NCBI GenBank assembly: GCA_018060945.1
Contig: JAGOVB010000002.1
Coordinates: 975 to 64,974 of the forward strand
Reading direction: 5' to 3'
DNA: 64,000 nucleotides
Source of the DNA: Minisyncoccota bacterium
GTDB taxonomy: Bacteria > Patescibacteriota > Minisyncoccia > Phycocordibacterales > PALSA-1337
Position 1 is the first letter of the stretch, and each line of letters starts with the position of its first letter. This document shows positions 158 to 35,664 of the stretch, in pieces. The notes under the pieces are model-generated. The model had not been told where the DNA came from, ran no database searches, and was given only the letters and a program-made list of their open reading frames with translations. Both the position numbers and the translations under genes were made by a program.

Positions 158-1063
158 TTAATTAACTAATTTTATAGAATTTCTTTCTGTATTAATATAA
201 ATTACATTACCATCTCTAATACATTGAGTTGCTATCTTAGTCCCAGTAATACAAGGTTTCTTCAATTCTCTTGCAATTATCGCCGCATGACTCGTCACCC
301 CTCCCTCATCCGTCACTATCCCCGCGGCTTTGTGGAGTATCGGTAAGTAGAGAGGTGTGGTCATGGGAGCGACGAGGATGTCGCCTTCGTTTAGTTTGTG
401 AAAGTCTTTGGGTGAGAGGATGATTTTGGCGATGCCTTTTACATTGCCTTTGTAGGCAACATTCCCTTTTATTTCTTTTACCTTCTCCACCACTTCCTCA
501 ACATACTCAAAATTATTTTTCTTTAAAAACTCATCCCATGAAAGCGGGACATAGGCGCCCGAGTGAAATATAAAAGTATCTGGCACAGGTACATGTTCGA
601 CTGCTTTGTAAAAAGGCTCGAGTGCAGTATCGACGAGTTCGCGGTATATGCGGCAGCGATTTATGATCTCTTCACTCCGATCATTTTGTATATCCGCACT
701 CCACATATTTGAAATATAGTATGGGACAACTGCGTGGACGTAGAGTCGAGCAAAACTGTCGACGAGCTCGGGGATGCTTACTTTGTCGTGCAGCTTTTGC
801 TTGAACTGTTGTATCAAGTCTTTGCAAACATCAATATTGGTTTTAAATGCATCTGAGTACGCATAGGCAAACATCAATGGCTTTAGTCGCGCATGCTCCT
901 CTTCGGCTCGGATAGAGTCCATCCGCTCACCATCGTACTTCATGATGTAGTGCTCGTATGCATCCCCGATGAGATCACGGAGATATTTTGTCTGAGCCAA
1001 AGAGGCTGCCTCAAACATCGGTGGAGCTATGTATCGAGTGCCCATTTTCTGAAGGCGGATCAT
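158..1063 (-). CDS. PEP-utilising-enzyme mobile (swivelling phosphohistidine) domain protein; no ATP-grasp domain
   Basis: 301-aa ORF. The C-terminus GGVTSHAAIIARELKKPCITGTKIAT matches the PpsA/PPDK phosphohistidine swivel motif. TGATATATT lies 6 nt upstream of the ATG. Confidence 0.75.
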   Translation of the reverse strand: MIRLQKMGTRYIAPPMFEAASLAQTKYLRDLIGDAYEHYIMKYDGERMDSIRAEEEHARLKPLMFAYAYSDAFKTNIDVCKDLIQQFKQKLHDKVSIPELVDSFARLYVHAVVPYYISNMWSADIQNDRSEEIINRCRIYRELVDTALEPFYKAVEHVPVPDTFIFHSGAYVPLSWDEFLKKNNFEYVEEVVEKVKEIKGNVAYKGNVKGIAKIILSPKDFHKLNEGDILVAPMTTPLYLPILHKAAGIVTDEGGVTSHAAIIARELKKPCITGTKIATQCIRDGNVIYINTERNSIKLVN

Positions 1064-1174
1064 GAGATTAATATATCATTTTATTGGTAGGTCCGAGGGG
1101 CTTGATTGTATACGTTATGTGTGTTATAATATATGAGTTAGCGTTTCAACAACAAACCAAGAGAAAGAAGTTTC

Positions 1175-1645
1175 TTGAAAATTCACATTTTGACCCACGG
1201 CGACAAAGAAGCAGGTGTGGACCCTTGCCTTACCCAAACCGGTGTGCGGCAGATTGAGAGCGTCACCCTGCCATCCACTGTTTTTCAGATCATCTCCGGA
1301 ACCGGCAACCGTTTCCAACAATCTGCAGAAATTGTCCGCAGGAGACTGGGCCACGAAAAAGACACCAGGTTTTCCCCCCTTTGCGGTTCTGCCGACAGTG
1401 GAGAAAAGGCCGAGTCGGGTTTCCAAGTGATTCTGGCAAATGGCAGAGTGGTGCCACTAGGCGACTATATCGGCCTCATTGGTACTCCGGGAGTTAACGT
1501 CAATGCCTTTCTGAATGCACTGCCCGAAAACACCCTACTCATTGCAGGACGAGAACTGCTGGGTGCGCTCGGGTACAAGGATGCTCTGTCCGGCGTTGTT
1601 TACGGCTATGATGGAGAAACTGTTTATGCAGGCATTCTGACGTGA
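1175..1645 (+). CDS. Small histidine-phosphatase-superfamily (SixA/PGAM-like) protein, divergent
   Basis: 156-aa ORF in a GC-rich patch. It has MKIHILTHGD (RHG motif with R replaced by T), LTQTG, and SGTGNRFQQSAEI resembling S..RA.QTA. The second catalytic His region reads IAGRE (no His). Its size is like SixA. Confidence 0.35.
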   Translation: MKIHILTHGDKEAGVDPCLTQTGVRQIESVTLPSTVFQIISGTGNRFQQSAEIVRRRLGHEKDTRFSPLCGSADSGEKAESGFQVILANGRVVPLGDYIGLIGTPGVNVNAFLNALPENTLLIAGRELLGALGYKDALSGVVYGYDGETVYAGILT

Positions 1646-1699
1646 ACAAATTTGTCTTCAGCACCCCCAACTGCGCTGCCACTTCGGCGGCGCGGTTTT

Positions 1700-2971
1700 T
1701 TATTTGATCAATTTTACAATTCCCTTTTCTGCATCCACCTCAACAAGGTCGCCGTCTTTGAGGACTTTGGTTGCTATTTTGGTACCGATAATGCAAGGCT
1801 TCTTCATTTCTCGTGCGACGATAGCGGCGTGTGAAGTAATTCCTCCAATGTCGGTAACAAAGGCTCCCGCTCGCTGCATTGCAGGCAAAAAATCTGGTGT
1901 CGACATTGTCGCAACCAAGATATCACCTTTTTCTATTTTGTATGAGTCTTTGGGCGACAAAATGATCTTTGCCCTACCAGTAACTTTTCCTTTAAAAGCA
2001 ATCGCACCCTTAATCTCTGAACCCAAGAATTCATCTGTTTTCTGGGCAAGCTCTCTAGTGAAATCTATCTTATAGCCCGCCTCATCAACCGTTATTACAA
2101 AGCTCTTTCTATCTCCGCCGATATTTATAAACCCGTTTTTAAATAAATTAGCCAAATCTTCTAAGGTCAGATCCAACAGAGAGTCATAAGTAAATTTGTC
2201 TGAATAGTTTGATATGACATACTGTCTAAAAACATATATTCCGTAACACATCGCCTCCCACTGTTTTGTACGCAGTTCAAGTAATCGAGCAAGGTAATTC
2301 AAGAGTGTTGAATTCGATTGACTAGTACTTACCACTTCACCCTTCTTCACATCTGAGTTTTTGATCATGTCGAAAACATCGATATTGCTCCATGGTTGGC
2401 CACCAAAAAACTTCATACCCAAATATCCGTATTTTTTAACTATATCTTCTATTTCACGAGCAAGACTTTCTGGTGCTGCACCAAACTCAGATAAATCAGG
2501 ATATGCAGTTTTAAGTGCCGCAATCTGACTTGAAACTCTAGTAACATCTGTTGTTGCTTTTGGTGCATCGTTTAAAGAAAGACCTTCGGACTCAACCCTC
2601 TTTAGCACGGACTCTTCAAATACAAAATACGCGATCGGAGCAACTGCCATCTGAGTTTTCTTGATCCACTCCTCGACGTCGATAGCTTTATCTTTAATTG
2701 AATCGATATACTCACGATAAGAATTTATTGCTGATTCTATATCTTCTATTAAAAGTGCACACTGCTCGTCTTTAAGTGTGATACTTCTAAGCTCATCCAT
2801 ATGATCTTTTGACCAGTAGATATCTCCTGAGTTATGTACATATTTAACAAAAGGTACTTTGAATGAAGCACCGTAACGCGACATGTCACAATACTTATAA
2901 AAACCGCCCAACACCATTTCTTGAGTCATTAAATCGGACTTGTGATTTCTAATTAACTCCCATGTTATCAT
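1700..2971 (-). CDS. PEP-utilising-enzyme mobile domain protein; no ATP-grasp domain
   Basis: 423-aa ORF with C-terminus GGITSHAAIVAREMKKPCIIGTKIAT. Its ATG overlaps the upstream gene's stop codon (ATGA at 2968..2971). Confidence 0.75.
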   Translation of the reverse strand: MITWELIRNHKSDLMTQEMVLGGFYKYCDMSRYGASFKVPFVKYVHNSGDIYWSKDHMDELRSITLKDEQCALLIEDIESAINSYREYIDSIKDKAIDVEEWIKKTQMAVAPIAYFVFEESVLKRVESEGLSLNDAPKATTDVTRVSSQIAALKTAYPDLSEFGAAPESLAREIEDIVKKYGYLGMKFFGGQPWSNIDVFDMIKNSDVKKGEVVSTSQSNSTLLNYLARLLELRTKQWEAMCYGIYVFRQYVISNYSDKFTYDSLLDLTLEDLANLFKNGFINIGGDRKSFVITVDEAGYKIDFTRELAQKTDEFLGSEIKGAIAFKGKVTGRAKIILSPKDSYKIEKGDILVATMSTPDFLPAMQRAGAFVTDIGGITSHAAIVAREMKKPCIIGTKIATKVLKDGDLVEVDAEKGIVKLIK

Positions 2972-4458
2972 TTTAGTATCCTAACTATACCCTTTTCTGC
3001 ATCTACTTCAACTAGGTCGCCTGTTTTGATTACATCGGTCGCAATTTTGGTGCCAATAACGCAGGGTCTTCGTAACTCACGTGACATGATTGCAGCGTGA
3101 CATAACACCCCTCCTTCATTGGTTATGATTGCAGCGGATATTTTCATTGCAGGAACAAGGTCTGGGGCGGTCATGGTTGTTACCAAGATTTCGCCTTCTT
3201 GCAACTCTGCCGCGTGTTTTCTATCTAAAATAACTCTGGCTCTTGCTGTTACTTTTCCTGGGTACGCTACCTGCCCCTTCAACTCTCTGATTTCTTTATT
3301 GTTATTTTGCGGCAATACGAGCTTTTCGAGTGCGTCGATATCATTGCCTGTCACAAGAACCGAAGTAAAAGGACCGATAAAGTAACCGTATCCTTTCTCA
3401 GTCCTATTTTTAATAACAGACTGCTCTAGAGCGAGTTTTCCAGCTTTGAGACTATCGATCATCTCTTTATATGTCATATTCAAAACTTCTACAACAGTTA
3501 GACCAAAATTATTCCCAATAAATTCAAATAATGGTTTATAGACACCATTTACTAACATAAAATGATCCACCGATTCTGTACGCAAGTACATAAACCATCG
3601 AACAAAATTAATTTTGTTTTTGAGAGTATCTGACAAATTTACAGACTCAAGCAAACTATTCGCATCAGTTATTTCCTTGTCTGCTTGTTCCAGCAGATCT
3701 TTTTGCTTTTTGAACTCATTCGGATCATTCAGAGGCTTTATTCGCCCACGATAGTATTCTTCATCAAAAAACTGATCGTCAATATCATGGACTGATAGAT
3801 GGCGGTATGTTTTTACATGAGCTTGAAGTGCAGTATTAAATTCTTCACCTTGTAGATTAACTAGTTTTAAAATATCTCTTTGTTCTTTACTCGAGAGCGG
3901 CAACTGCATAGTTCGATAAACTGAATCAAGAAAGTTGGTCAGCTCACTTTCTGACGCTGTCCAACTAGCTTTTATTTGACGGTCAATCTCCTCTTTCATA
4001 GGATCGACAGCAAACCAAAGGAATGCGAGGCTAAAAAACTTTACCCAGTAATCTACGAATGTATCTACAGACTCAACCACGCTTCCATTGGTCAGTGCGA
4101 CCTGAGGTATATCGGCCGCAATTTTCTTTTGCATTTCTATTACATTTTGCAATTCTTTCACTAATGAACCAGCGAAAGACGCGTCCTCGTCTATTTTCTT
4201 GAGCCACAGCTCAGCTGCTTCTTTGTTTACATTCTCACTTTGAAAGACTCGCTTGACGGCACTTTTCCCAGATTCATAAAAGGCAAACTTAATCCCCCAG
4301 CGTTCTTGTGCTACATCATGACTGTATCGATATGCATCTTGAAAAAATACATTTCGTCTTCGGATAAAAGCCATACCGAATGGTGACTTTTTAATAAAAT
4401 CAATATCACTTTTCAGTGAGTTGGGGTCTAAGTTAAAAATGGGGTTGGTCAGAATCAT
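2968..4458 (-). CDS. PEP-utilising-enzyme mobile domain protein; no ATP-grasp domain
   Basis: 496-aa ORF with C-terminus GGVLCHAAIMSRELRRPCVIGTKIAT. It shares an ATGA overlap with the upstream gene at 4455..4458. Confidence 0.75.
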   Translation of the reverse strand: MILTNPIFNLDPNSLKSDIDFIKKSPFGMAFIRRRNVFFQDAYRYSHDVAQERWGIKFAFYESGKSAVKRVFQSENVNKEAAELWLKKIDEDASFAGSLVKELQNVIEMQKKIAADIPQVALTNGSVVESVDTFVDYWVKFFSLAFLWFAVDPMKEEIDRQIKASWTASESELTNFLDSVYRTMQLPLSSKEQRDILKLVNLQGEEFNTALQAHVKTYRHLSVHDIDDQFFDEEYYRGRIKPLNDPNEFKKQKDLLEQADKEITDANSLLESVNLSDTLKNKINFVRWFMYLRTESVDHFMLVNGVYKPLFEFIGNNFGLTVVEVLNMTYKEMIDSLKAGKLALEQSVIKNRTEKGYGYFIGPFTSVLVTGNDIDALEKLVLPQNNNKEIRELKGQVAYPGKVTARARVILDRKHAAELQEGEILVTTMTAPDLVPAMKISAAIITNEGGVLCHAAIMSRELRRPCVIGTKIATDVIKTGDLVEVDAEKGIVRILK

Positions 4459-6512
4459 TTTATTATCCTAACTATACCCTTTTCTGCATCTACTTCAACT
4501 ATATCGCCATCTTTGAGGACTTTGGTAGCGGTTTTTGTACCTATAACACACGGTATTTTAAATTCTCGTGAGACAATCGCAGCATGGCACATGATTCCGC
4601 CTTCATCGGTGACAATGGCACCTGCTTTCTTGATAATTGGAACGAGGTCTGGATTTGTATTTAATGAAACTAGAATATCACCTTGATTAAATTCTTTAAC
4701 ATCTTCTAGAATGTTAACAATACGAACTGTTCCTTTTGCATACCCTGGAAACGCAATAGCGCCTTTTAGTATGTCTGTACTTTCAACATATTCGTTTAGT
4801 ACTGGGATTTCCTTTTCATATGTACTATCAAAAGAAAAGATCAATTTATTATCAGGTATATTATTCCACAATAGTGACCAGGCCTTTCTCTGCTGTAATT
4901 CTTCCTTATTTATTCCGTTTGTATCAATATTTCTTATCTCATCGGGCGCCATAAAATGAACGTAAACAGGATCAATATCATATTTTTTACCCAATTCATC
5001 AAACCAAGAATTTAAAATAGTTCTTTCGAGTTCTGTATATTTCGATGTGTTTCTTAGTGGCTCGTACATATCTAGAACATCACTAAACTGTTGTCTTTTT
5101 ACTCCTTTCGTCAATTCTGTATCAATTGTCGAAAGCACAAGATACGGCATAGTCGCAGTATAGAGTAGTATGTTTATGAAGTCTTCGTAAAATGTATTAA
5201 AAGATTCAACTGAAAAAGGTATCGACTTCTTTTTGAAATCATTAAGCCATTTGTCGGCAAGCTGCTGAACTTCCGAGCCCTTTTTTGCCCATGCTGTAAT
5301 ACGAGAATCTTTGTTTCGAATAAGTGCCAGAAAGTGCTGATCACATTTTACAAACTCCTCAGCCGCTCTAAAATGCACCCCAGTATCCCCAGTCCATTTA
5401 TATAGATGGTGATAAAATCTAAAACCACAAATATCTGGCATTCTTTGTGCTTCTATTTCAATAAATGGGAAATAAATAAACGGTGTTCTTTTCCTTTCAA
5501 GAAATTTTACCCAATTTACTTTCTTACCTTCCCAAGTGACGGGGTAACCCTTATCTTCTACTTGCCTGGGACTCAACGTCGTAATCGGTCGACTCTGCAC
5601 GACATAGAACTTCCCTCCTTCATATGCCCATTCGATATCACATGGAAAGCCGTAGTGATTTTCGATGTTTAGAATAATTCCAGAAAGCTCGAAAATATCT
5701 GTTTCGTTGAGTACTTGTGAGCTCGCTTTTGGCTCTGGTATATCTCGCCACTCATTGCCACCACCTTCGATACGATAGAGTGCACGCTCCTGTGTAGATA
5801 CATTGACATCGATGATCTTTCGAGGTTCTTTTTCTACTACATAGCTATCCGGTGTGACTGATCCAGAAACGATCGCTTCTCCCAAACCAAAACCTGCTTC
5901 GATAATGAGCTGATTGTAGTCTTCAGTGACTGGGTGCACAGAGAAAGCAATTCCTGAAACTTCAGAGTTGACCATCTTTTGGACGACTACAGCTACAGAG
6001 ATCTTTGTGGTGTGTAGTCCCTTTTCAAAACGATAAAAGATGGCGCGTGGAGTAAAGAGTGATGCCCAGCAATGTTTTACTTTTTCCAAGACTCCGTCTT
6101 TTGTAATATTCAAATAGCTCTCGAGCTGTCCTGCCCATGCATGTTCTTTTCCATCTTCTGCTGTTGCTGATGATCGTACTGCGACGTATTTTGTGTCGAG
6201 TGCAGCAAAAGCCTTTTCGATATCTGCTTCGATATCTTTTGGCATGTCTTTTGAGAGGATGAGCTCTTTTATCTTTTCGCTCGCCGACTCTACGGTGTGG
6301 ATCGCCTTGTGATCGACTGATTCGAGAATAGCGTCGATCTCCTGCACGAGGTCTGTTTCTTTTATAAATTGTTCAAATGAGTTTGAAAGCACAACAAAGC
6401 CAGGCGGTACCGGTATACCTGACTGTGACATCTCACCGAGCGATGCACCTTTCCCTCCGGCAATATCTGCGTCTGTTTTAGATAGCTTTGAGAAATGACG
6501 TACGAGTTCCAT
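4455..6512 (-). CDS. PpsA/PPDK-like kinase: N-terminal PEP/pyruvate-binding ATP-grasp domain, a middle domain and a C-terminal swivel His domain (rifampicin-phosphotransferase-like layout)
   Basis: 685-aa ORF. The N-terminus has DIAGGKGASLGEM ... FYVVQSRPITTL (PPDK_N type). The C-terminus is GGIMCHAAIVSREFKIPCVIGTKTAT. No TIM-barrel PEP-binding domain is present. Confidence 0.8.
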   Translation of the reverse strand: MELVRHFSKLSKTDADIAGGKGASLGEMSQSGIPVPPGFVVLSNSFEQFIKETDLVQEIDAILESVDHKAIHTVESASEKIKELILSKDMPKDIEADIEKAFAALDTKYVAVRSSATAEDGKEHAWAGQLESYLNITKDGVLEKVKHCWASLFTPRAIFYRFEKGLHTTKISVAVVVQKMVNSEVSGIAFSVHPVTEDYNQLIIEAGFGLGEAIVSGSVTPDSYVVEKEPRKIIDVNVSTQERALYRIEGGGNEWRDIPEPKASSQVLNETDIFELSGIILNIENHYGFPCDIEWAYEGGKFYVVQSRPITTLSPRQVEDKGYPVTWEGKKVNWVKFLERKRTPFIYFPFIEIEAQRMPDICGFRFYHHLYKWTGDTGVHFRAAEEFVKCDQHFLALIRNKDSRITAWAKKGSEVQQLADKWLNDFKKKSIPFSVESFNTFYEDFINILLYTATMPYLVLSTIDTELTKGVKRQQFSDVLDMYEPLRNTSKYTELERTILNSWFDELGKKYDIDPVYVHFMAPDEIRNIDTNGINKEELQQRKAWSLLWNNIPDNKLIFSFDSTYEKEIPVLNEYVESTDILKGAIAFPGYAKGTVRIVNILEDVKEFNQGDILVSLNTNPDLVPIIKKAGAIVTDEGGIMCHAAIVSREFKIPCVIGTKTATKVLKDGDIVEVDAEKGIVRIIK

Positions 6513-12480: not shown

Positions 12481-12507
12481 AAAAAGCCCCTTTGCGAGGG
12501 GTTGTTT
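12481..12507 (-). terminator. Intrinsic terminator after the NYN gene
   Basis: Hairpin CCCCT-TTGCG-AGGGG flanked by an A-run and a T-run. On the minus strand it is followed by CTTTTT. Confidence 0.5.
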
Positions 12508-12555
12508 GACAACATTAGTGGCTCTGCTATAATTTTAGAACAACGAAAAAGGATC

Positions 12556-13080
12556 TCATGAAGGTGCGTCCCCATGCGGTCCTTTTTCATTTCCAGAATC
12601 TGAGATCAAATTACGCAGAGTACTTATAGACGCAATATTCCCTTTAACTGCTCGTTTAATTAAAATAGAAGCTCTATCGATAGCTGGGACTAATGCTATT
12701 TTAAACTTATTTCTCTCTAACAAGAGATCCACGAGTATTTTAAAATCACCATCACCACTTATTATGACCGCTTCGTCAAAGACATTAAGATTCAACATAA
12801 CCGTAACGGCTAAATCGACATCAATATTGGCTTTTAGTCTATTATCAATATATACAGTCTCTTTAAAGACAATTTCGTAACCAATTTGCTTAAGATAACT
12901 ATAAATTGATTCATTCTTTTTTATATACCCAATAAAAAGTATAGCTTTAGTGACTTTATACTTACTTTTGAGATAATTTAGAAATTTCTTAAAATCAATC
13001 CTCCATTCTAAAGACTCCACCCCCTTAATTAGGTTTTGGAAGTCAATAAAAGCATAGTTGTTTTCTTTCTTTATTTGCAC
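12556..13080 (-). CDS. NYN/LabA-like (PIN-fold) ribonuclease domain protein, paralog 1
   Basis: 174 aa with FIDFQNL, ANIDVDL and IISGDGDF. It has a GTG start with TGCTAGAGT 6 nt upstream. Confidence 0.7.
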   Translation of the reverse strand: MQIKKENNYAFIDFQNLIKGVESLEWRIDFKKFLNYLKSKYKVTKAILFIGYIKKNESIYSYLKQIGYEIVFKETVYIDNRLKANIDVDLAVTVMLNLNVFDEAVIISGDGDFKILVDLLLERNKFKIALVPAIDRASILIKRAVKGNIASISTLRNLISDSGNEKGPHGDAPS

Positions 13081-30187: not shown

Positions 30188-30262
30188 TCCCCTGTAGCTC
30201 AGCGGTAGAGCAATCGCCTGTTAAGCGATTGGTCGTAGGTTCGATCCCTACCGGGGGAGCCA
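30188..30262 (+). tRNA. tRNA-Asn (anticodon GUU), CCA encoded
   Basis: Cloverleaf: acceptor TCCCCTG/CGGGGGA, D arm GCTC-AGCGGTA-GAGC, anticodon stem ATCGC/GCGAT with loop CTGTTAA, T arm GTAGG-TTCGATC-CCTAC, then GCCA. Confidence 0.9.
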
Positions 30263-30526
30263 GTTAGGACAGCCTGATAATTGAAGGATCAAATTATATG
30301 GTTTTCTTAGTGTAAATTCTAGGTTTTTAGCGGAAACAGTCGGGTTCTGAAGTAAGTAATTCAAAATTGCTCGTTTTTCCATTGGTTCAGAACTCTCAAA
30401 GAGTGTTTTTATTCTGCGTGATAGATTTAGTATTGTAGAAATCTGGATATGATACTCATGGTCTGCTTTGGTATGCTCTCCAAGTTCAATGTTGAGTCGG
30501 TATTGTCGATCCTTCAATTCTTGCAA
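30248..30526 (-). pseudogene. 5'-truncated remnant of a large serine recombinase (C-terminal region only)
   Basis: The 92-aa ORF (..EHTKADHEYHIQISTILNLSRRIKTLFESSEPMEKRAILNYLLQNPTVSAKNLEFTLRKPYN) resembles, from memory, the C-terminal helical region of large serine recombinases. No catalytic domain is present. The ORF reads 15 nt into the tRNA-Asn 3' end. Confidence 0.45.
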
Positions 30527-30552
30527 CTTCTTGTCATAGTCATCCTTAGTAA

Positions 30553-30571
30553 TTCACCTATCAAGACAAGC
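30553..30571 (+). repeat. Weak copy of the island repeat (core CACCTATCAA)
   Basis: TTCACCTATCAAGACAAGC lies at the truncation point of the recombinase remnant. Confidence 0.3.
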
Positions 30572-30578
30572 CAAATAA

Positions 30579-31133
30579 TTAGTACTTACTCAAATCAAAC
30601 CATTTATTCTCAAATCCTGCCTTTTTCAGGATACGCATTACAAAATCTGTTTTACCTCCAATGTATTCACCTTTTCCTGTCGGGTCTCTTTGTAGTAGCT
30701 CTTTCTTTAACTCACCATAAGCATCCCTATCTTCAAGGTGTTCACGCAAATAATCTCTAAACAAAATTTGTCGTTCTAAAAAGCTTCCTTTATCACCATA
30801 ACAAATTGAGAGATGAAATTCTGTTGGCACACCTTTTCTCAGAAAATGTCGTTCGGTTGATACGTCCTTACTAGATACATATCCAAGAGTTGCCAAAGGC
30901 TCGATAACTGATTCAATATTTTCAGAAGAAGGTATCTCAACTGCAATATCGATTATTGGTTTTGAAGCGAGTCCTGTGATAGAAGTGCTTCCAATATGCT
31001 CGATTCTAGCTATCTTGTCACCAAGCAAGCTCTTGATCCTCTCTGCTTCCTGTTCAAAAATCTCAGGCCATTTCGGATCATATTCTCTTACTTCTAGATG
31101 CGATATATCGACTGTTTCGATCTTTTGTTCCAT
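30579..31133 (-). CDS. GrpB-family nucleotidyltransferase-fold protein
   Basis: It has IEHIGSTSITGLASKPIIDI and matches over the full GrpB length. The start is at ATG 31133, with TATAAT 6 nt upstream. Confidence 0.75.
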   Translation of the reverse strand: MEQKIETVDISHLEVREYDPKWPEIFEQEAERIKSLLGDKIARIEHIGSTSITGLASKPIIDIAVEIPSSENIESVIEPLATLGYVSSKDVSTERHFLRKGVPTEFHLSICYGDKGSFLERQILFRDYLREHLEDRDAYGELKKELLQRDPTGKGEYIGGKTDFVMRILKKAGFENKWFDLSKY

Positions 31134-31207
31134 ATGCAAATTATATAAAAATCAACAGATAAAAGATACTGCACCTCAAAAGCTCTGACTTTTGATATAC
31201 TTACTTC

Positions 31208-31753
31208 ATGAATTTAACCATACCTGTTAGAGACAATATTGAACTAAAGACACTTCAGATATCTGACGCTCAAGCTTTTTTTGATATTACAAAAAAGAAT
31301 AATAAATACTTGCGAGAATGGCTCGGTTGGTTGGATGACGATAAAACTGCGACTGATACTGAAAAGTATATAATCGAAAGCAATAAACGATTTGAGAACA
31401 AAGAAGGATTGGACCTTGGGATTTTTGCTGACGGTCTACAGATTGGTGGTATTGGTCTATTCCCTTGGGACACTGCAAACAAAAAGACTTCTGTTGCATA
31501 TTGGCTCACTGAAGAATCTCAAGGTAAAGGAATTATGACTGATTGTCTCAAGAAGGTTATTGAGTATGCATTTATTGAAATGGGGTTAAATCGCATTGAA
31601 GTCACCTGTGCAATTGGCAATACAAAGAGTTCAGCCCTTCCTAAAAAGCTCGGTTTCACTCTTGAGGGTATTTCTCGCGAAGGGAGCTGGCTCTATGACC
31701 ATTTTGTGGATTTGGAAGTGTATAGTTTGTTAGCAAAAGAGTGGAAAAGATAA
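31208..31753 (+). CDS. GNAT N-acetyltransferase (RimJ/RimL-like)
   Basis: 181 aa with the acetyl-CoA motif SQGKGIMTDCLKKVIEYAF and NTKSSALPKKLGF. Confidence 0.85.
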   Translation: MNLTIPVRDNIELKTLQISDAQAFFDITKKNNKYLREWLGWLDDDKTATDTEKYIIESNKRFENKEGLDLGIFADGLQIGGIGLFPWDTANKKTSVAYWLTEESQGKGIMTDCLKKVIEYAFIEMGLNRIEVTCAIGNTKSSALPKKLGFTLEGISREGSWLYDHFVDLEVYSLLAKEWKR

Positions 31754-31758
31754 AACAA

Positions 31759-32247
31759 ATGAAAAATATCTTAGAAATCGAACGAAAATTCATCCTCTCA
31801 AAACTCCCCGATGTAAGTGGAATCATACCCATGGAGTATGAGAGATACTTTCTCGAGCGAGGTAGTGGTATTGAAACGAGAGTTCAGAAAAAAGGAAATA
31901 AATATACATACGAAAAGAAGATCGAGAAAGAAGGTGTTGGTCGGGAGCGTGCAGAAGAACGAGAAATAAGTGAGGAGGAATTTAATACATTAAAGAAAAC
32001 TGCCTCAAAAGCGATCCTCCGAACTCGCTACGACATATCCCCTCTCATTGCAATCCAGGCATACCACGGTGACTACGAAGGACTTATTCGATATGAAGTA
32101 GAGTTTAATACAGTCGAGGAAGCACAAGCTTTTGTTCCCGAATCATGGCTTGGAAAAGAAATTATTGACTCCCCTATTGGGCGTGATGGAAAGCTGCTAG
32201 ATTTGAATCGAGAAGAGTTTTTACTTGAGCTGAAGAAGTTTTTGTAA
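31759..32247 (+). CDS. CYTH-domain (triphosphate tunnel metalloenzyme) protein
   Basis: It has the N-terminal EIERKF signature. The start is placed at ATG 31759. Confidence 0.7.
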   Translation: MKNILEIERKFILSKLPDVSGIIPMEYERYFLERGSGIETRVQKKGNKYTYEKKIEKEGVGRERAEEREISEEEFNTLKKTASKAILRTRYDISPLIAIQAYHGDYEGLIRYEVEFNTVEEAQAFVPESWLGKEIIDSPIGRDGKLLDLNREEFLLELKKFL

Positions 32248-32268
32248 TCAAACCTCACCTATCAACGC
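32246..32268 (+). repeat. Island repeat copy A
   Basis: AATCAAACCTCACCTATCAACGC, 23/23 identical to copies B and C. It overlaps the CYTH stop codon. Confidence 0.8.
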
Positions 32269-32325
32269 ATAAAATCACCAACTTGCGGAAAACATCAGTT
32301 TAGGCTAGTATTTAGATATCACCAC

Positions 32326-32366
32326 GAAAAAGCTCCTATGAGGCCCGTCCTCATAGGGCCTTTTTC
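32326..32366. terminator. Bidirectional intrinsic terminator
   Basis: The stem CCTATGAGG/CCTCATAGG is flanked by an A-run and a T-run and overlaps the NYN stop codon. Confidence 0.55.
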
Positions 32367-32875
32367 TTTGTATATGTGTACTCAACCTTGTTTCTTACTG
32401 CATCTAGAAAAATCAGGAACTTTTCAGTTGGAGTATTGATTTTCTTTAATAATGCAGAGTATCTTTTTTGATCAGGAATGATGACTGCCTTAAGTTTCTT
32501 TTGATCTCTTAAATATTCAGCGAGACAATAGAAATCACCATCCCCTGAAATGATTATTGCCTTTCCATAATTAGGAAGCTCAATCATCGAGTGCAATACG
32601 AGCTCAGCATCACAGTTCCCTTTTGTTGTTCCATCTTTATACATGAGCGTTGGTTTAAAAATAACAATGTAGCCATCTTCCTGCATTTTCTTGTATATTT
32701 GCTGATTGCCTTCCATATATCCCATAAAGAGATACGCCTTCTCTACCGCAAATTTGTCTTTCAAATATATTCTTAGTTTCGAGAAATCAATCTTCCAACC
32801 TTGGTTTTTAATACTAAGGTAGAGATTCTGGCTATCTATGAAAGCAAAGTTTGGTAGTTCATTTTCCATGTACAT
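32351..32875 (-). CDS. NYN/LabA-like ribonuclease domain protein, paralog 2
   Basis: 174 aa with FIDSQNL, KGNCDAEL and IISGDGDF. TGATATAAT lies 5 nt upstream of the ATG. Confidence 0.72.
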   Translation of the reverse strand: MYMENELPNFAFIDSQNLYLSIKNQGWKIDFSKLRIYLKDKFAVEKAYLFMGYMEGNQQIYKKMQEDGYIVIFKPTLMYKDGTTKGNCDAELVLHSMIELPNYGKAIIISGDGDFYCLAEYLRDQKKLKAVIIPDQKRYSALLKKINTPTEKFLIFLDAVRNKVEYTYTKKKAL

Positions 32876-32906
32876 ACAAGATTATATCAAAAGCATATCT
32901 CTAGTA

Positions 32907-32935
32907 AATCAAACCTCACCTATCAACGCGAGCAT
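32907..32935 (+). repeat. Island repeat copy B
   Basis: AATCAAACCTCACCTATCAACGCGAGCAT, 29/29 identical to copy C. Confidence 0.85.
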
Positions 32936-32968
32936 AGCATTTTGCAGAATTTCTGATATACTCATATT

Positions 32969-33331
32969 ATGAATATTGATCACATTGGTTTTGCAGTTTC
33001 AAACTTTAAAAAGAGTAAAGATTTTTATACCAGCACTCTATCCCCACTTGGTTTAACAATCGTTGGTGAAGGTGATACATGGGCAATGATGGGTAAAACT
33101 AAATGTGATCTATGGTTTGGTGAAATTGAAGGAGAAAATCCAAAACCAATCCATTTAGCATTCGTTGCTGAAAATCATGAACAAGTAGACGCATTTTATG
33201 CAAAAGCTATGGAAGCTGGTGCTACTGATAACGGAAAGCCGGGACTAACTCCTGAATACGGAGAAAGTTACTATGCCGCCTTTGTTATTGATATCAATGG
33301 ACATAATCTAGAAGCTGTCTGTAGAACATAA
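32969..33331 (+). CDS. VOC/glyoxalase-family protein
   Basis: 120 aa with IDHIGFAVSN, HLAF and GHNLEAV. Confidence 0.8.
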   Translation: MNIDHIGFAVSNFKKSKDFYTSTLSPLGLTIVGEGDTWAMMGKTKCDLWFGEIEGENPKPIHLAFVAENHEQVDAFYAKAMEAGATDNGKPGLTPEYGESYYAAFVIDINGHNLEAVCRT

Positions 33332-33334
33332 AAC

Positions 33335-33739
33335 ATGAAACCTGACCCAAGACTCCATCACTACTGCCAAAATATTAAAACCGGATATTTGAAGGATGTA
33401 ATTGAAATGTATTCCCTCCTCGATTTTGATATCGTATACAATCCGGGAGAACAAGCTGGCTGGATCATGGTTGGTCAGAAACAATTACGTTTTGCAATAC
33501 AAATTACTCAAGTCGATGATACTCCAATAGCTGATTTAGATGTAAAGAAAAGAACTCATATTGCTTTCCTTTCAGACAATCCGAAAGAGGTAGTTGAAAA
33601 GATTAGAACTTGGGCTGAAACGAAAGGATTGGAATTTAGACAAGGTGGTTGGTCTGATCGAGAACTCTATTTTGATTTACCTGATGTATTCATCAACTTT
33701 GTTGTAGAGGTAATGCATACTTCGATTGAAGAAGAATAA
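33335..33739 (+). CDS. Hypothetical protein, possibly a VOC-like fold
   Basis: 134 aa with THIAFLSDNPKEVVEKI and a weak beta-alpha-beta-beta-beta pattern. Confidence 0.35.
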   Translation: MKPDPRLHHYCQNIKTGYLKDVIEMYSLLDFDIVYNPGEQAGWIMVGQKQLRFAIQITQVDDTPIADLDVKKRTHIAFLSDNPKEVVEKIRTWAETKGLEFRQGGWSDRELYFDLPDVFINFVVEVMHTSIEEE

Positions 33740-33743
33740 ATGT

Positions 33744-34268
33744 ATGAAAAAGATTTACATAACTGGAGTTTCAGGGACTGGCAAAACAACAATTTATGAA
33801 GAGTTAAAGAAACGAGGATTTACTGCGATCAGTTTAGATGAAACAGATGACTTGTGTTGTTGGGCAAGTAAAAAAACTAAAGAAAAAGTAGAGCGACAAG
33901 TAGAACTTAATATAGAATTTACCAGTACACACGACTGGATTTGTGATATTGAGTATTTGAAAAAGCTTTTAGCCAAAGAGACTGATAAAGATATGGTATT
34001 TGTCTTGGGAGTTGCTTCTAATCAAAAGGAATTTCTGACTATGTTTGATAAGGTACTAGTTCTTCAGTGTAAACCTGAAACCTTTCTACACAGACTTACA
34101 CACAGAACTAATAATGAGTTTGGTAAAGATGAAACTGTACGAAGTGCGGTTCTTGGGTGGTATCAAGAGTTTGAAAGTGAACTTCTATTACGAGGAGCGA
34201 TTTCTATCGATACGGACAAGCCCCTAAACGAAGTCGTGGAAGAGGTACTAAGGCAAGCTGGGATATAA
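33744..34268 (+). CDS. P-loop NTPase / small-molecule kinase-like protein
   Basis: It has the Walker A motif ITGVSGTGKTT at the N-terminus and is the size of AAA_18/shikimate-kinase-like proteins. Confidence 0.6.
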   Translation: MKKIYITGVSGTGKTTIYEELKKRGFTAISLDETDDLCCWASKKTKEKVERQVELNIEFTSTHDWICDIEYLKKLLAKETDKDMVFVLGVASNQKEFLTMFDKVLVLQCKPETFLHRLTHRTNNEFGKDETVRSAVLGWYQEFESELLLRGAISIDTDKPLNEVVEEVLRQAGI

Positions 34269-34296
34269 ATCAAACCTCACCTATCAACGCGAGCAT
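34268..34296 (+). repeat. Island repeat copy C
   Basis: AATCAAACCTCACCTATCAACGCGAGCAT. It overlaps the last base of the kinase stop codon. Confidence 0.85.
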
Positions 34297-34340
34297 CCTT
34301 GCTTTTTTCGAACAAAAGCATATAATACATGTATCACTAT

Positions 34341-34389
34341 GAAAAAGACCCTTACGTAGATACGTCTACGTCGGGGGTTTTTTCTTTTA
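34341..34389. terminator. Bidirectional intrinsic terminator
   Basis: ACGTAGA-TACG-TCTACGT extended by CCC/GGG, flanked by GAAAAAG and TTTTTTCTTTT. Confidence 0.55.
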
Positions 34390-34869
34390 TAGCTTTCTTG
34401 AGAACTTGTGGTACTGCTCATTGAGAAATGTGATTTCAATATTCTTGTTTCTGAGCAAGAAGGAACACTTTTTCTTGTCTGGAGCAATTACTCTTTCGAG
34501 AGCAGAATTACTATTAAGAAATTCAACGAGGCAACCAAAGTCTCCATCACCTGTAATCAATACACACTTCTCATACGCTTTAGTGTAGAAATCTGACGTT
34601 GTCTTTAAAACGAGCTCAGCATCACAATTCCCTTTTATAACTCCACTCACAGAAATAGTTTGCTTGAAGATCAGGATAAAACCACACTCTTGTAGATGTT
34701 GATAAAATTTCACTCGATCAGGAACTAAGCCGATGAATAAATATACTTGGTCTGGTGTGTACTTCTGCCGTAACCATCCTTTAAATTTTTTATAATCAAT
34801 TTCAAAACCCAGCTCTTTGGCACTGCGATATAGATTATTTCCGTCAATATAAATATTAGTTTTACTCAT
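34387..34869 (-). CDS. NYN/LabA-like ribonuclease domain protein, paralog 3
   Basis: It has YIDGNNL, KGNCDAEL and LITGDGDF. The start is placed at MSKTNIY (34869) so that it clears repeat copy D. Confidence 0.72.
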   Translation of the reverse strand: MSKTNIYIDGNNLYRSAKELGFEIDYKKFKGWLRQKYTPDQVYLFIGLVPDRVKFYQHLQECGFILIFKQTISVSGVIKGNCDAELVLKTTSDFYTKAYEKCVLITGDGDFGCLVEFLNSNSALERVIAPDKKKCSFLLRNKNIEITFLNEQYHKFSRKL

Positions 34870-34892
34870 GTAAATGCATTTTATCATAGAAG

Positions 34893-34921
34893 AACCAACC
34901 CTCACCTGTCAAAGCGAGCAT
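34893..34921 (+). repeat. Island repeat copy D
   Basis: AACCAACCCTCACCTGTCAAAGCGAGCAT, 25/29 identical to copy B. Confidence 0.7.
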
Positions 34922-35015
34922 TAAAAAGTAGGCAAAAATCGCTATTGTTGTCTTTATTGACAATGTGTGATAAGATGTGTCTTGGTAAAACACAAACCCC
35001 AACCCCCTTATTAGG

Positions 35016-35573
35016 ATGGATAAAGACCTTTTAAAGAAACTTCTGACTCAGAATACTTTGGTGATCGATGGTGGTGTGGAGAGTGCGGTCGGAGCCTACA
35101 TCTTCGATTCCCTTCAAGAGCTCAAGAGTCGTGGTAATCCTCCGATAGAACTCACCATCGCATCAAACGGTGGAGACGTCACTGTTGGCCTCGATATCTA
35201 CGACATGCTCGCGACCTACCCCGGAGTCATCAATGGAACCGTCGTTGGGTATGCTCGAAGTATGGGAGTAATCATTCTCCAGGCATGCAACCGACGTCTC
35301 GCTCATCAACACGCCAGGCTCCTGATTCACCACGTCTCAAGACGCCAGGTGAACCTCGATATCCTGGTATCACAAAAGCGGCTCGCAAAGACGGTCACAG
35401 AAATGCAACGACAACAACAGTTTCTGTACCGTATCCTTGCCGGGAAAACCAAACGAACTATCCCGCAGATTCGCAAAGCATGCTCCCTCGACAAAGACAT
35501 GTCAGCAGAGGAAGCGCTCGTATTCGGACTGATTGATGAGATCACTCCAGTGCGGACGAAGTCACCCACCTGA
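35016..35573 (+). CDS. ClpP-family (S14) serine protease-like protein, GC-rich
   Basis: 185 aa colinear with ClpP: SNGGDVTVGLDIYDML, the catalytic Ser in ARSMG, the His in LLIHH and the Asp in SLDKD. Confidence 0.65.
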   Translation: MDKDLLKKLLTQNTLVIDGGVESAVGAYIFDSLQELKSRGNPPIELTIASNGGDVTVGLDIYDMLATYPGVINGTVVGYARSMGVIILQACNRRLAHQHARLLIHHVSRRQVNLDILVSQKRLAKTVTEMQRQQQFLYRILAGKTKRTIPQIRKACSLDKDMSAEEALVFGLIDEITPVRTKSPT

Positions 35574-35592
35574 ATGATAGTTCAACTCACAC

Positions 35593-35634
35593 AGCCACCA
35601 ATGTCGAAAGACCTCTTGGTGGCTTTTGTCTTTT
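35593..35634 (+). terminator. Intrinsic terminator
   Basis: Stem AGCCACCAA/TTGGTGGCT followed by TTTTGTCTTTT. Confidence 0.6.
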
Positions 35635-35635
35635 A

Positions 35636-35664
35636 CCTCAAAACCCACCTATCAAAGCGAGTAC
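35636..35664 (+). repeat. Island repeat copy E (diverged)
   Basis: CCTCAAAACCCACCTATCAAAGCGAGTAC. Confidence 0.55.

Follow-up and report, generated by a model that had tools for sequence, protein, structure and literature searches.

Several type I toxin–antitoxin systems pair a toxin gene with a convergent antisense RNA that overlaps its 3' end, as in par Fst/RNAII of Enterococcus and txpA/RatA and bsrG/SR4 of Bacillus subtilis, and in the type I systems SymE/SymR and RalR/RalA of Escherichia coli the toxin is a nuclease. The staphylococcal cassette chromosome (SCC) forms composite islands at rlmH (orfX) by means of the Ccr large serine recombinases and direct-repeat integration sites, and ccr-less pseudo-SCC elements occur as well. 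Here we describe a locus with likenesses to both, in a 64,000-nucleotide stretch of a Minisyncoccota bacterium (contig JAGOVB010000002.1, positions 975 to 64,974 of the forward strand), hereafter the window. It carries three genes for NYN/LabA-like proteins, predicted nucleases of the PIN fold, which we call NYN1, NYN2 and NYN3; the first two lie in an array of cassettes beside a tRNA-Asn gene. At the 3' end of each NYN gene we find a predicted small RNA (sRNA) gene on the opposite strand. Judged from its sequence, this convergent antisense gene is conserved at NYN 3' ends, spans phyla and was previously uncatalogued.

Like Fst/RNAII, TxpA/RatA and BsrG/SR4, the NYN modules consist of convergent genes with their own promoters, whose 3' ends overlap at a bidirectional terminator, and they are short, patchily distributed and located in islands. 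With SymE/SymR and RalR/RalA they share an enzymatic, nucleic-acid-cleaving toxin (in the NYN case a predicted one) under a cis-encoded antisense RNA. The folds differ, however, SymE being AbrB-like and RalR a small DNase, and only these enzymatic outliers are comparable. Moreover, SymR overlaps the 5' end of its target whereas the NYN RNA overlaps the 3' end, and neither SymR nor RalA is related to the NYN RNA in sequence or structure. The sequence and structure of the NYN RNA are conserved across phyla, which is unusual for a type I antitoxin.

NYN genes and their predicted antisense RNAs

All three NYN genes are on the minus strand: NYN1 (32351..32875, 174 aa), NYN2 (34387..34869, 160 aa) and NYN3 (12556..13080, 174 aa), the last in the interval between lysS and mraZ. 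The ATG at 34869 is the likely start of NYN2; the first-pass annotation, made by a model from the letters alone, had run the open reading frame (ORF) to a GTG at 34905, and the gene caller had placed the start at 34887. That annotation had grouped the three proteins as paralogues on motifs of the FID..NL and SGDGDF type, and the Pfam matches agree with it: every one of the three ORFs matches PF01936 (E 6e-13, 6e-13 and 3e-15), with scores of 49.9, 50.0 and 57.3 bits against a cut-off of 24.2, which places all of them in the family. The motifs FID..NL, GNCDAEL/ANIDVDL and SGDGDF are common to the three, and D14, D89, D112 and D114, together with E91, are invariant in 24 NYN sequences and present in each window copy. 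The family profile matches the structural-genomics protein VPA0982 (PDB 2qip; E 1e-14). By sequence the window proteins are members of the NYN.COG1432/LabA-like group, with the same acidic motif set. The bacterial LabA-like NYN family is very large, with at least 7,987 relatives among the matches listed. A survey of the PIN superfamily gives the function of the group as unknown and describes no RNA associated with it, and nuclease activity had been assayed for none of its bacterial members (PMC5499597). Exact-sequence look-ups of NYN3 and of a 595-aa neighbour returned no record.

A common 3' element was first read at the stop codons of 47 NYN loci from many phyla and is visible at most of them. 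On the sense strand it consists of an A-rich run, a long hairpin with the apex GGAC(G/A)(A/G)AACC, and the sequence C(G/A)TNGTGAT. On the opposite strand a TATAAT-like box lies about 6-8 nt from the ATCAC end and a TTGACA box 16-18 nt further, and the antisense strand reads as a complete small gene, with a promoter, an ATCAC start, a hairpin and a U-tract, for an RNA of about 57 nt. The 5' leader AUCAC(C/G)AC and the GUC of the apical loop are conserved in sequence across phyla. The U-tract is encoded by the Lys-rich A-tract that closes the NYN ORF, and the RNA is perfectly complementary to the last codons, the stop codon and the 3' untranslated region of the NYN mRNA. The layout of ATCAC..GAAAAAG, hairpin and T-run that the first-pass annotation had noticed behind NYN1 and NYN2 is real and highly non-random, and corresponds to this putative antisense gene.

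In the window, the first of these sRNA genes (32283..32374, plus strand) has the promoter TTGCGG-17-TAGTAT (32283-32311) and an RNA at 32318-32374 that overlaps the NYN1 stop codon; it reads ATCACCACGAAAAAG, hairpin, then TTTTTCTTT, with compensatory changes relative to the orthologues. The second (34299..34391, plus strand) has the promoter TTGCTT-16-TATAAT (34299-34326) and an RNA at 34333-34391. The third (12506..12595, plus strand) has the consensus promoter TTGACA-16-TATAAT (12506-12533), and its RNA, at about 12537-12595, overlaps the NYN3 stop codon. A covariance model, named R1 and distinct from the island repeat R1 described below, scores the three at 61.9 bits (E 2e-12), 55 bits (E 1.4e-10) and 43.8 bits (E 1e-7). 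NYN3 had been placed beside the mraZ promoter; its location between lysS and mraZ stands, but the promoter at 12506-12533 is on the plus strand, points into NYN3 and would serve the antisense RNA rather than mraZ. Between the NYN3 module and mraZ, at 12481-12511, lies a further terminator-like hairpin (CCCCTCGCAAAGGGG, with a T-run behind it on the minus strand), which overlaps the -35 box of that antisense promoter. For the NYN genes themselves, a promoter scan gives TTTACT-16-TGnTATAAT for NYN1 (32881-32908) and TTGACA-18-TATGAT for NYN2 (34883-34912), the -35 box of the latter lying within island repeat R5.

The structure of the RNA is supported by covariation. RNAalifold, applied to 41 sequences in the antisense orientation, returns a 15-bp helix with compensatory changes at 14 of the 15 pairs. 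The share of paired cells is 88.1% (75.2% in shuffled alignments, 41-66% in slid controls), and double-sided changes number 104 against 32.5 after shuffling. On a sense-strand MAFFT alignment RNAalifold found 3 pairs only; the antisense alignment resolved the helix. The antisense fold is the stabler one in 31 of the 41 sequences (mean -20.9 versus -18.3 kcal/mol, p=1.6e-4), as would be expected if the transcribed antisense strand tolerates G-U pairs. The U-tract, too, is consistent on the antisense strand and absent as a consistent feature on the sense strand.

Searched over 874 kb at a threshold of E<1e-3, covariance model R1 gave 53 matches, all antisense at NYN 3' ends except three orphans; exactly three are in the window, one per NYN gene. 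A promoter, called at 9 or more of 12 consensus positions in the correct placement, lies 4-9 nt before the RNA start in 40 of 52 matches (77%) but at 1.3% of random positions, and at the stricter 10/12 the figures are 63% and 0.24%. Rfam 15 had no match at the element in the window and at 12 other loci (the best permissive hits reached about 22 bits, against cut-offs of 49-90), and a literature search found no paper tying NYN proteins to an sRNA. In more distant viral NYN homologues the antisense element was not found, and the RNA appears to be restricted, as far as the sequences compared can tell, to one stand-alone NYN subfamily. An antitoxin-like RNA or small ORF had been envisaged in the cassette flanks: the conserved convergent sRNA gene would provide such an RNA, but promoters and the sRNA take up the gaps of 30-75 nt and leave no room for a small ORF. 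A hammerhead or other ribozyme reading of the GGACGAAACC loop was rejected, since the CUGANGA core is absent on both strands.

The three orphan copies have no adjacent NYN ORF. We refer to loci fetched from other genomes and contigs for comparison by L-numbers. Two orphans, L047:5623-5680 (55.6 bits) and L071:2787-2844 (41.7 bits), are orphan or duplicated copies. In the third (L098:12-850), a zeta-toxin gene (PF06414, E 2e-36) and a 64-aa ORF hold the slot that NYN1 occupies in the window and are followed by a NYN1-type sRNA element (56 bits), which suggests that the sRNA persists with a different toxin family. Truncated NYN genes, too, still keep their antisense RNA.

The tRNA-Asn cassette array

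NYN1 and NYN2 belong to an array whose proximal anchor is tRNA-Asn (GTT; 30188..30262, plus strand; called by ARAGORN and scoring 70 bits with the Rfam tRNA model). Its order is tRNA-Asn, recombinase remnant, R1, GrpB–GNAT–168-aa ORF, R2, NYN1, R3, glyoxalase–134-aa ORF–kinase, R4, NYN2, R5, ClpP-like protease, R6, where R1 to R6 are copies of an island repeat. All six copies are on the plus strand and confined to 30554-35664, with none elsewhere in the window; the 10-mer core CACCTRTCAA is found 6 times where 0.22 occurrences are expected, and the conserved stretch at each junction is only about 31 nt. We took R3 (32905..32935) as the reference copy. R4 (34266..34296) is identical to it and overlaps the kinase stop codon, R2 (32244..32274, 77% identity) overlaps the stop of the 168-aa ORF, and R5 (34891..34921) is 81% identical; R6 (35634..35664, 77% identity) is the last detectable copy and is followed by the promoter TTGACA-17-TAGAAT. 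R1 (30554..30571) is a half copy which, by comparison with L102, is joined to the truncated recombinase gene via the microhomology GGTGA. The first-pass annotation had read four of these copies as brackets of NYN cassettes. Both genes are indeed bracketed, in units of 692 bp for NYN1 (repeats starting at 32244 and 32905) and 656 bp for NYN2 (34266 and 34891), but the brackets are not specific to them: because six same-strand copies flank all units, the repeats delimit every cassette of the array.

The other cassettes encode, by Pfam, GrpB (30579..31139, minus strand), a GNAT acetyltransferase (31208..31753, plus strand) and the 168-aa ORF (31741..32247, plus strand) in cassette 1 (30579..32247), and a glyoxalase-family protein, a 134-aa ORF and an AAA_18 kinase-like protein in cassette 3 (32969..34268, plus strand). 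The ClpP-like protease of cassette 5 (35016..35573, plus strand; NCBIfam) scores far below the ClpP equivalog cut-offs and matches the model of a phage head-maturation protease related to ClpP (3e-18); an identity with the housekeeping ClpP is improbable.

Between the tRNA and the first repeat lies the C-terminal remnant of a large serine recombinase gene (30248..30565, minus strand; about 92-100 aa), which in tblastn aligns with residues 405-501 of a 533-aa Resolvase+Recombinase+Zn_ribbon protein (36-38% identity, E 4e-10 to 3e-12). Read in reverse complement, the tRNA-Asn 3' end supplies its final codons (..NWLPR*), an attL-like junction. At the DNA level the window and L102 versions of this fragment are 80% identical, a surprising degree of conservation in a remnant. 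In the candidate phyla radiation (CPR) we found 57 short homologues, annotated as hypothetical proteins of 54-160 aa (P0121-P0177), all of them C-terminal fragments of large serine recombinases. These have two endings, one reading into a tRNA and the other being the native tail ..WL(P/R)(L/I)VDEFRT..; in many the frame runs across a tRNA 3' end in reverse complement (..CPTGLR(D/E)LDSNQ..).

Several comparisons suggest a link between such junctions and recombinase attachment sites. The local repeat of L012 sits within the native tail of the recombinase, and a translation of the window repeat in the direction of the recombinase gene, LALIGEV*, weakly resembles this tail. Intact large serine recombinase genes stand directly beside the NYN gene in L025 and L072, where the window has only the remnant. 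The L098 array begins at the very 3' end of the tRNA, and the junction ..GGGGGAGCA|TCGCAGTCCAGTTGACA shares the core and the right flank with two internal repeats. The L098 repeats are 94-100% identical to those of the window, whereas the housekeeping genes are 68-77% identical and the cassettes differ, which argues that the island repeat is a selected recognition site. Taken together, the six same-strand copies, the recombinase 3'-end copies of L012 and L025 and the tRNA junction of L098 fit direct repeats derived from attachment sites, as in SCC.

An SCC-like composite island is therefore the closest analogy that we can offer for the array. The two are alike in tandem accretion at the 3' end of a conserved gene, same-strand repeats at every junction and many segments without a recombinase of their own. 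They differ in that the window array is anchored at tRNA-Asn, its segments measure 0.6-1.7 kb and the candidate large serine recombinase linked to it is a remnant.

The content of the array is variable. Orthologues of NYN1 in other genera (80-83% identity) occupy the same tRNA-Asn hot spot, which adjoins a YggU-HPF-fmt-def-priA block (in L001 and L012 also tRNA-Asn), but their neighbours (AAA_15/RloB, AbiEii, NUDIX and peptidase genes) are entirely unlike those in the window. The L001 strain, 98.9% identical, has a shorter array without NYN2. It diverges from position 33333 of the window onwards, and beyond the glyoxalase stop (L001:1-9542) it carries a different 121-aa gene and then M23 peptidase, GluRS, MurG and FtsW genes, all of them absent from the rest of the window (30 kb); this suggests a large rearrangement or island, with the array at the breakpoint.

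The anchor itself is altered in two relatives. In L098:2930-3600, the syntenic locus of a related genus, an insert of about 600 nt with an HNH endonuclease ORF (Pfam E 3e-5) interrupts the tRNA-Asn immediately behind the anticodon; it may represent a group I intron or homing element, and ARAGORN calls no tRNA there. In L006:11282-11471 three tandem tRNA-like fragments, spaced by 74-75 nt, lie at the tRNA-Asn site of the relatives, and again ARAGORN calls none.

Other origins of the repeat were considered and rejected. A general regulatory motif does not fit with zero copies outside 30.5-35.7 kb of the window, and a dif/Xer site does not fit with the absence of inverted arms and a monotonic cumulative GC skew. 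As a fragment of a tRNA 3' end the repeat aligns weakly with the tRNA-Asn T-arm, only the terminal GAGCA core being in common. A single viral match (L108:11928-11947, IMG/VR) has the core CTCACCTATCAAGGCGAGCA within recA codons for LTYQGEH; one match is what chance would give for 19 specified bases, and it is probably a coincidence. In metagenomes, 7 of the 9 matches to a 20-mer of the repeat are likewise at chance level, in high-GC coding DNA.

NYN modules in other genomes

The architecture of the window recurs elsewhere. We surveyed 80 NYN loci in other genomes of many phyla. For genes of 300-900 nt, the two 300-nt flanks were compared with each other, and the best direct repeat without gaps that they share was scored. 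At a score of 15 or more, bracketing repeats are found at 10 of 77 NYN genes and at 3 of 339 other genes (Fisher p=5e-6, about 15-fold), and 2 of these 3 other genes belong to an NYN array. Each pair of repeats spans the entire module, sRNA promoter included; the repeats are unrelated between genomes and copy local targets. In L012 and L025 the target is the 3' end of a serine-recombinase gene, in L067 that of a transglycosylase gene, and in L040 the 5' end of a comM-like gene. What is conserved is thus the architecture of a module plus a duplicated target, which supports the idea of a portable cassette. The suggestion of the first-pass annotation that an NYN gene and its 3' hairpin form a discrete recurrent unit is borne out.

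The NYN genes are patchy across phyla, and there are genomes with multiple divergent paralogues. In variable arrays they co-occur with HicAB-like, BRO, zeta-toxin, AbiE and RloB-type genes. In a Peregrinibacteria locus (L048:4360-8620) at least six AT-rich, promoter-like repeats lie between the pilin and pilC genes and separate three NYN paralogues (one of them truncated), a BRO-N-like gene, a HicA/HicB-like fusion and a 243-aa gene. A general linkage of NYN genes to tRNAs was rejected, as a tRNA lies within 1 kb at 5 of the 80 loci, which is about background.

An RNA-controlled nuclease module?

We think it slightly more probable than the contrary, on the evidence of sequence comparison, that an NYN gene and its convergent antisense RNA form a type I-like toxin–antitoxin or self-regulated nuclease module that travels as a cassette, with two such modules in the tRNA-Asn array and NYN3 inherited vertically. 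One half would be a stand-alone NYN/LabA-like protein of about 165-175 aa, a predicted PIN-fold nuclease with its acidic active-site residues intact, and the other an RNA of about 57 nt with a sigma-70-type promoter of its own immediately behind the NYN gene. Abundant antisense RNA may pair with the 3' end of the NYN mRNA, the first contact probably being a loop-loop kiss of the complementary hairpins, and the pairing would keep nuclease synthesis low through cleavage of the duplex or destabilisation of the mRNA. If antisense transcription fell, the nuclease would be made, which is the logic of a type I toxin–antitoxin system. A cis antisense RNA gene with its own promoter and terminator that overlaps the mRNA, as such a system has, is present at the level of sequence. 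The island setting, the orphan RNAs, the truncated NYN genes that retain the RNA, the paralogues and the co-occurring toxin–antitoxin genes are all consistent with an antitoxin role. The modules would act as portable single-gene cassettes, NYN1 and NYN2 filling slots in the strain-variable array, and the 31-nt att-like repeats at the array junctions most likely stem from site-specific accretion of the SCC type by a large serine recombinase. The proposal that these genes are a mobile toxin-like module is substantially strengthened, now with an RNA partner, and generalised. In its broadest form, in which RNA-controlled, type I-like NYN nuclease modules would span phyla and be mobile as single-gene cassettes, with the target duplicated or a copy of it carried along, and would in CPR bacteria build integrase-less arrays on serine-recombinase att sites at tRNA-Asn, the proposal is more tentative, and we rate it at somewhat below an even chance.

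A number of observations weigh against this interpretation. Classical type I toxins are small hydrophobic membrane peptides of fewer than 60 aa, whereas the NYN proteins look soluble and measure 160-174 aa. The sRNA and its promoter are predictions from sequence; covariance model R1 detects the RNA at only 42 of the 80 NYN loci, and at about 16 further loci, of Saccharibacteria and Microgenomates types, a diverged form with the same promoter and ATCAC start is recognised by eye only. As regards mobility, the similarity of the window repeat to a recombinase 3' end is weak, being direct only for L012 and L025, no intact recombinase is found in the window (Pfam scan and contig annotation, ORFs of at least 150 aa, most of the window), and in L001, the only near-identical relative, the breakpoint at 33333 is inside a cassette and not at a repeat. 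No NYN homologue turned up among 72,556 plasmid and 50,697 phage records, an absence unusual in addiction modules, and NYN3 is stable among housekeeping genes with the same RNA, a situation that a regulated housekeeping RNase fits as well as a toxin does.

A housekeeping or stress nuclease of RNA processing, tuned by a cis-antisense RNA and present in the island only incidentally, is therefore a serious rival, albeit an unlikely one in our estimate. It accounts for NYN3 and its relatives among core genes, one of them (51% identity) lying between RNase J and IF3/L20, and for the absence from plasmids and phages, and some bacterial NYN genes adjoin genes of tRNA and rRNA maturation (PMC5499597). 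Against it stand the enrichment of bracketing repeats, divergent paralogues with a patchy distribution, neighbours of the HicAB-like, zeta-toxin, AbiE and RloB types, and orphan sRNAs without NYN. Far less probable is that the 3' element is only a bidirectional intrinsic terminator of convergent genes: a GC-rich hairpin between an A-tract and a T-tract that faces convergent plus-strand genes in the window would suit this role, but a near-consensus promoter at a fixed distance and the conserved ATCAC(C/G)AC leader and GUC loop speak against it, and the consistent U-tract and the stabler fold are both on the antisense strand. The idea of the first-pass annotation that one NYN-plus-terminator cassette was copied within this genome to three sites is contradicted, and we give it hardly any credence. 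NYN1 and NYN2 do share flanking repeats and a 39-nt intragenic stretch with 85% identity, and all three genes have the 3' element. However, the proteins are only 38-41% identical to one another, NYN3 is without the repeat, and NYN1 and NYN3 have orthologues outside this genome, so that the paralogues predate it. The NYN3 orthologue, 87% identical, keeps the greA-lysS-NYN-mraZ-rsmH position (L104, L105), from which vertical inheritance of NYN3 follows; NYN3 is syntenically fixed. Local alignment of the 150-nt flanks of the three genes finds NYN1 and NYN2 alike through the island repeat only (p<0.001), a weak similarity of NYN1 and NYN3 downstream (p=0.018), and chance similarity for the upstream flank of NYN3 (p=0.42 against NYN1, 0.93 against NYN2); the CTCTAG(T/C)AAA(T/A)CA match noted there exists (11 of 13 positions), but not the flank similarity that it seemed to indicate.

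Two further explanations concern the array. NYN genes may have spread as restriction-modification genes do, by "insertion with long target duplication", through homologous or illegitimate recombination and without a dedicated recombinase, the island repeats being reused targets. The repeats of L040, L067, L028 and L044, 40-78-nt copies of ordinary neighbouring sequence that are unrelated between genomes, look like this, but the 31-nt repeat of the window also bounds cassettes without NYN, and it is 94-100% conserved in L098 against only about 70% for the housekeeping genes, which speaks for a selected recognition site; we regard this route as quite unlikely for the window, though not as unlikely as an integron-type array, in which a tyrosine integrase (IntI) would act on attC sites and to which we assign a very low probability, similar to that of the terminator. 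Integrons, and clusters of attC sites lacking integron-integrases (CALINs), resemble the array in their small, mostly single-gene and strain-variable cassettes, toxin–antitoxin-like genes and, for CALINs, the lack of a nearby integrase; same-strand repeats between the cassettes, some of them overlapping stop codons, and a small hairpin possible in the repeat also fit. But membership fails on both intI and attC. The scan that yielded no intact serine recombinase in the window found no intI or tyrosine recombinase either, and the linked remnant is of a serine recombinase. The repeat has 31 nt, no second conserved box and no R''/R' inverted pair, its RYYYAAC/GTTRRRY boxes being imperfect and unpaired, where attC sites are imperfect palindromes of 57-141 nt with an R''/L''...L'/R' architecture, and promoters and terminators are present within the cassettes, whose orientation is mixed.

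The tRNA-Asn array shows that Patescibacteria with their tiny genomes keep an integron-like store of cassettes without integron parts, which bears on how they take up defence and accessory genes. The conserved partner RNA would be the first concrete handle on the control of NYN proteins and on their frequent location in variable regions. Should the RNA be an antitoxin, type I logic would extend to a PIN-fold nuclease toxin, and an RNA that can be modelled across phyla would allow systematic annotation. Experiments are feasible in Emticicia sp. BO119 (locus L025), a cultured host that carries an NYN module.

Outside the loci discussed above, the window holds an unusual tandem family at 158-6512 (minus strand): four consecutive paralogous ORFs end in a PEP-utilizers mobile domain, and only the last (4455..6512) has a PPDK_N ATP-binding domain.

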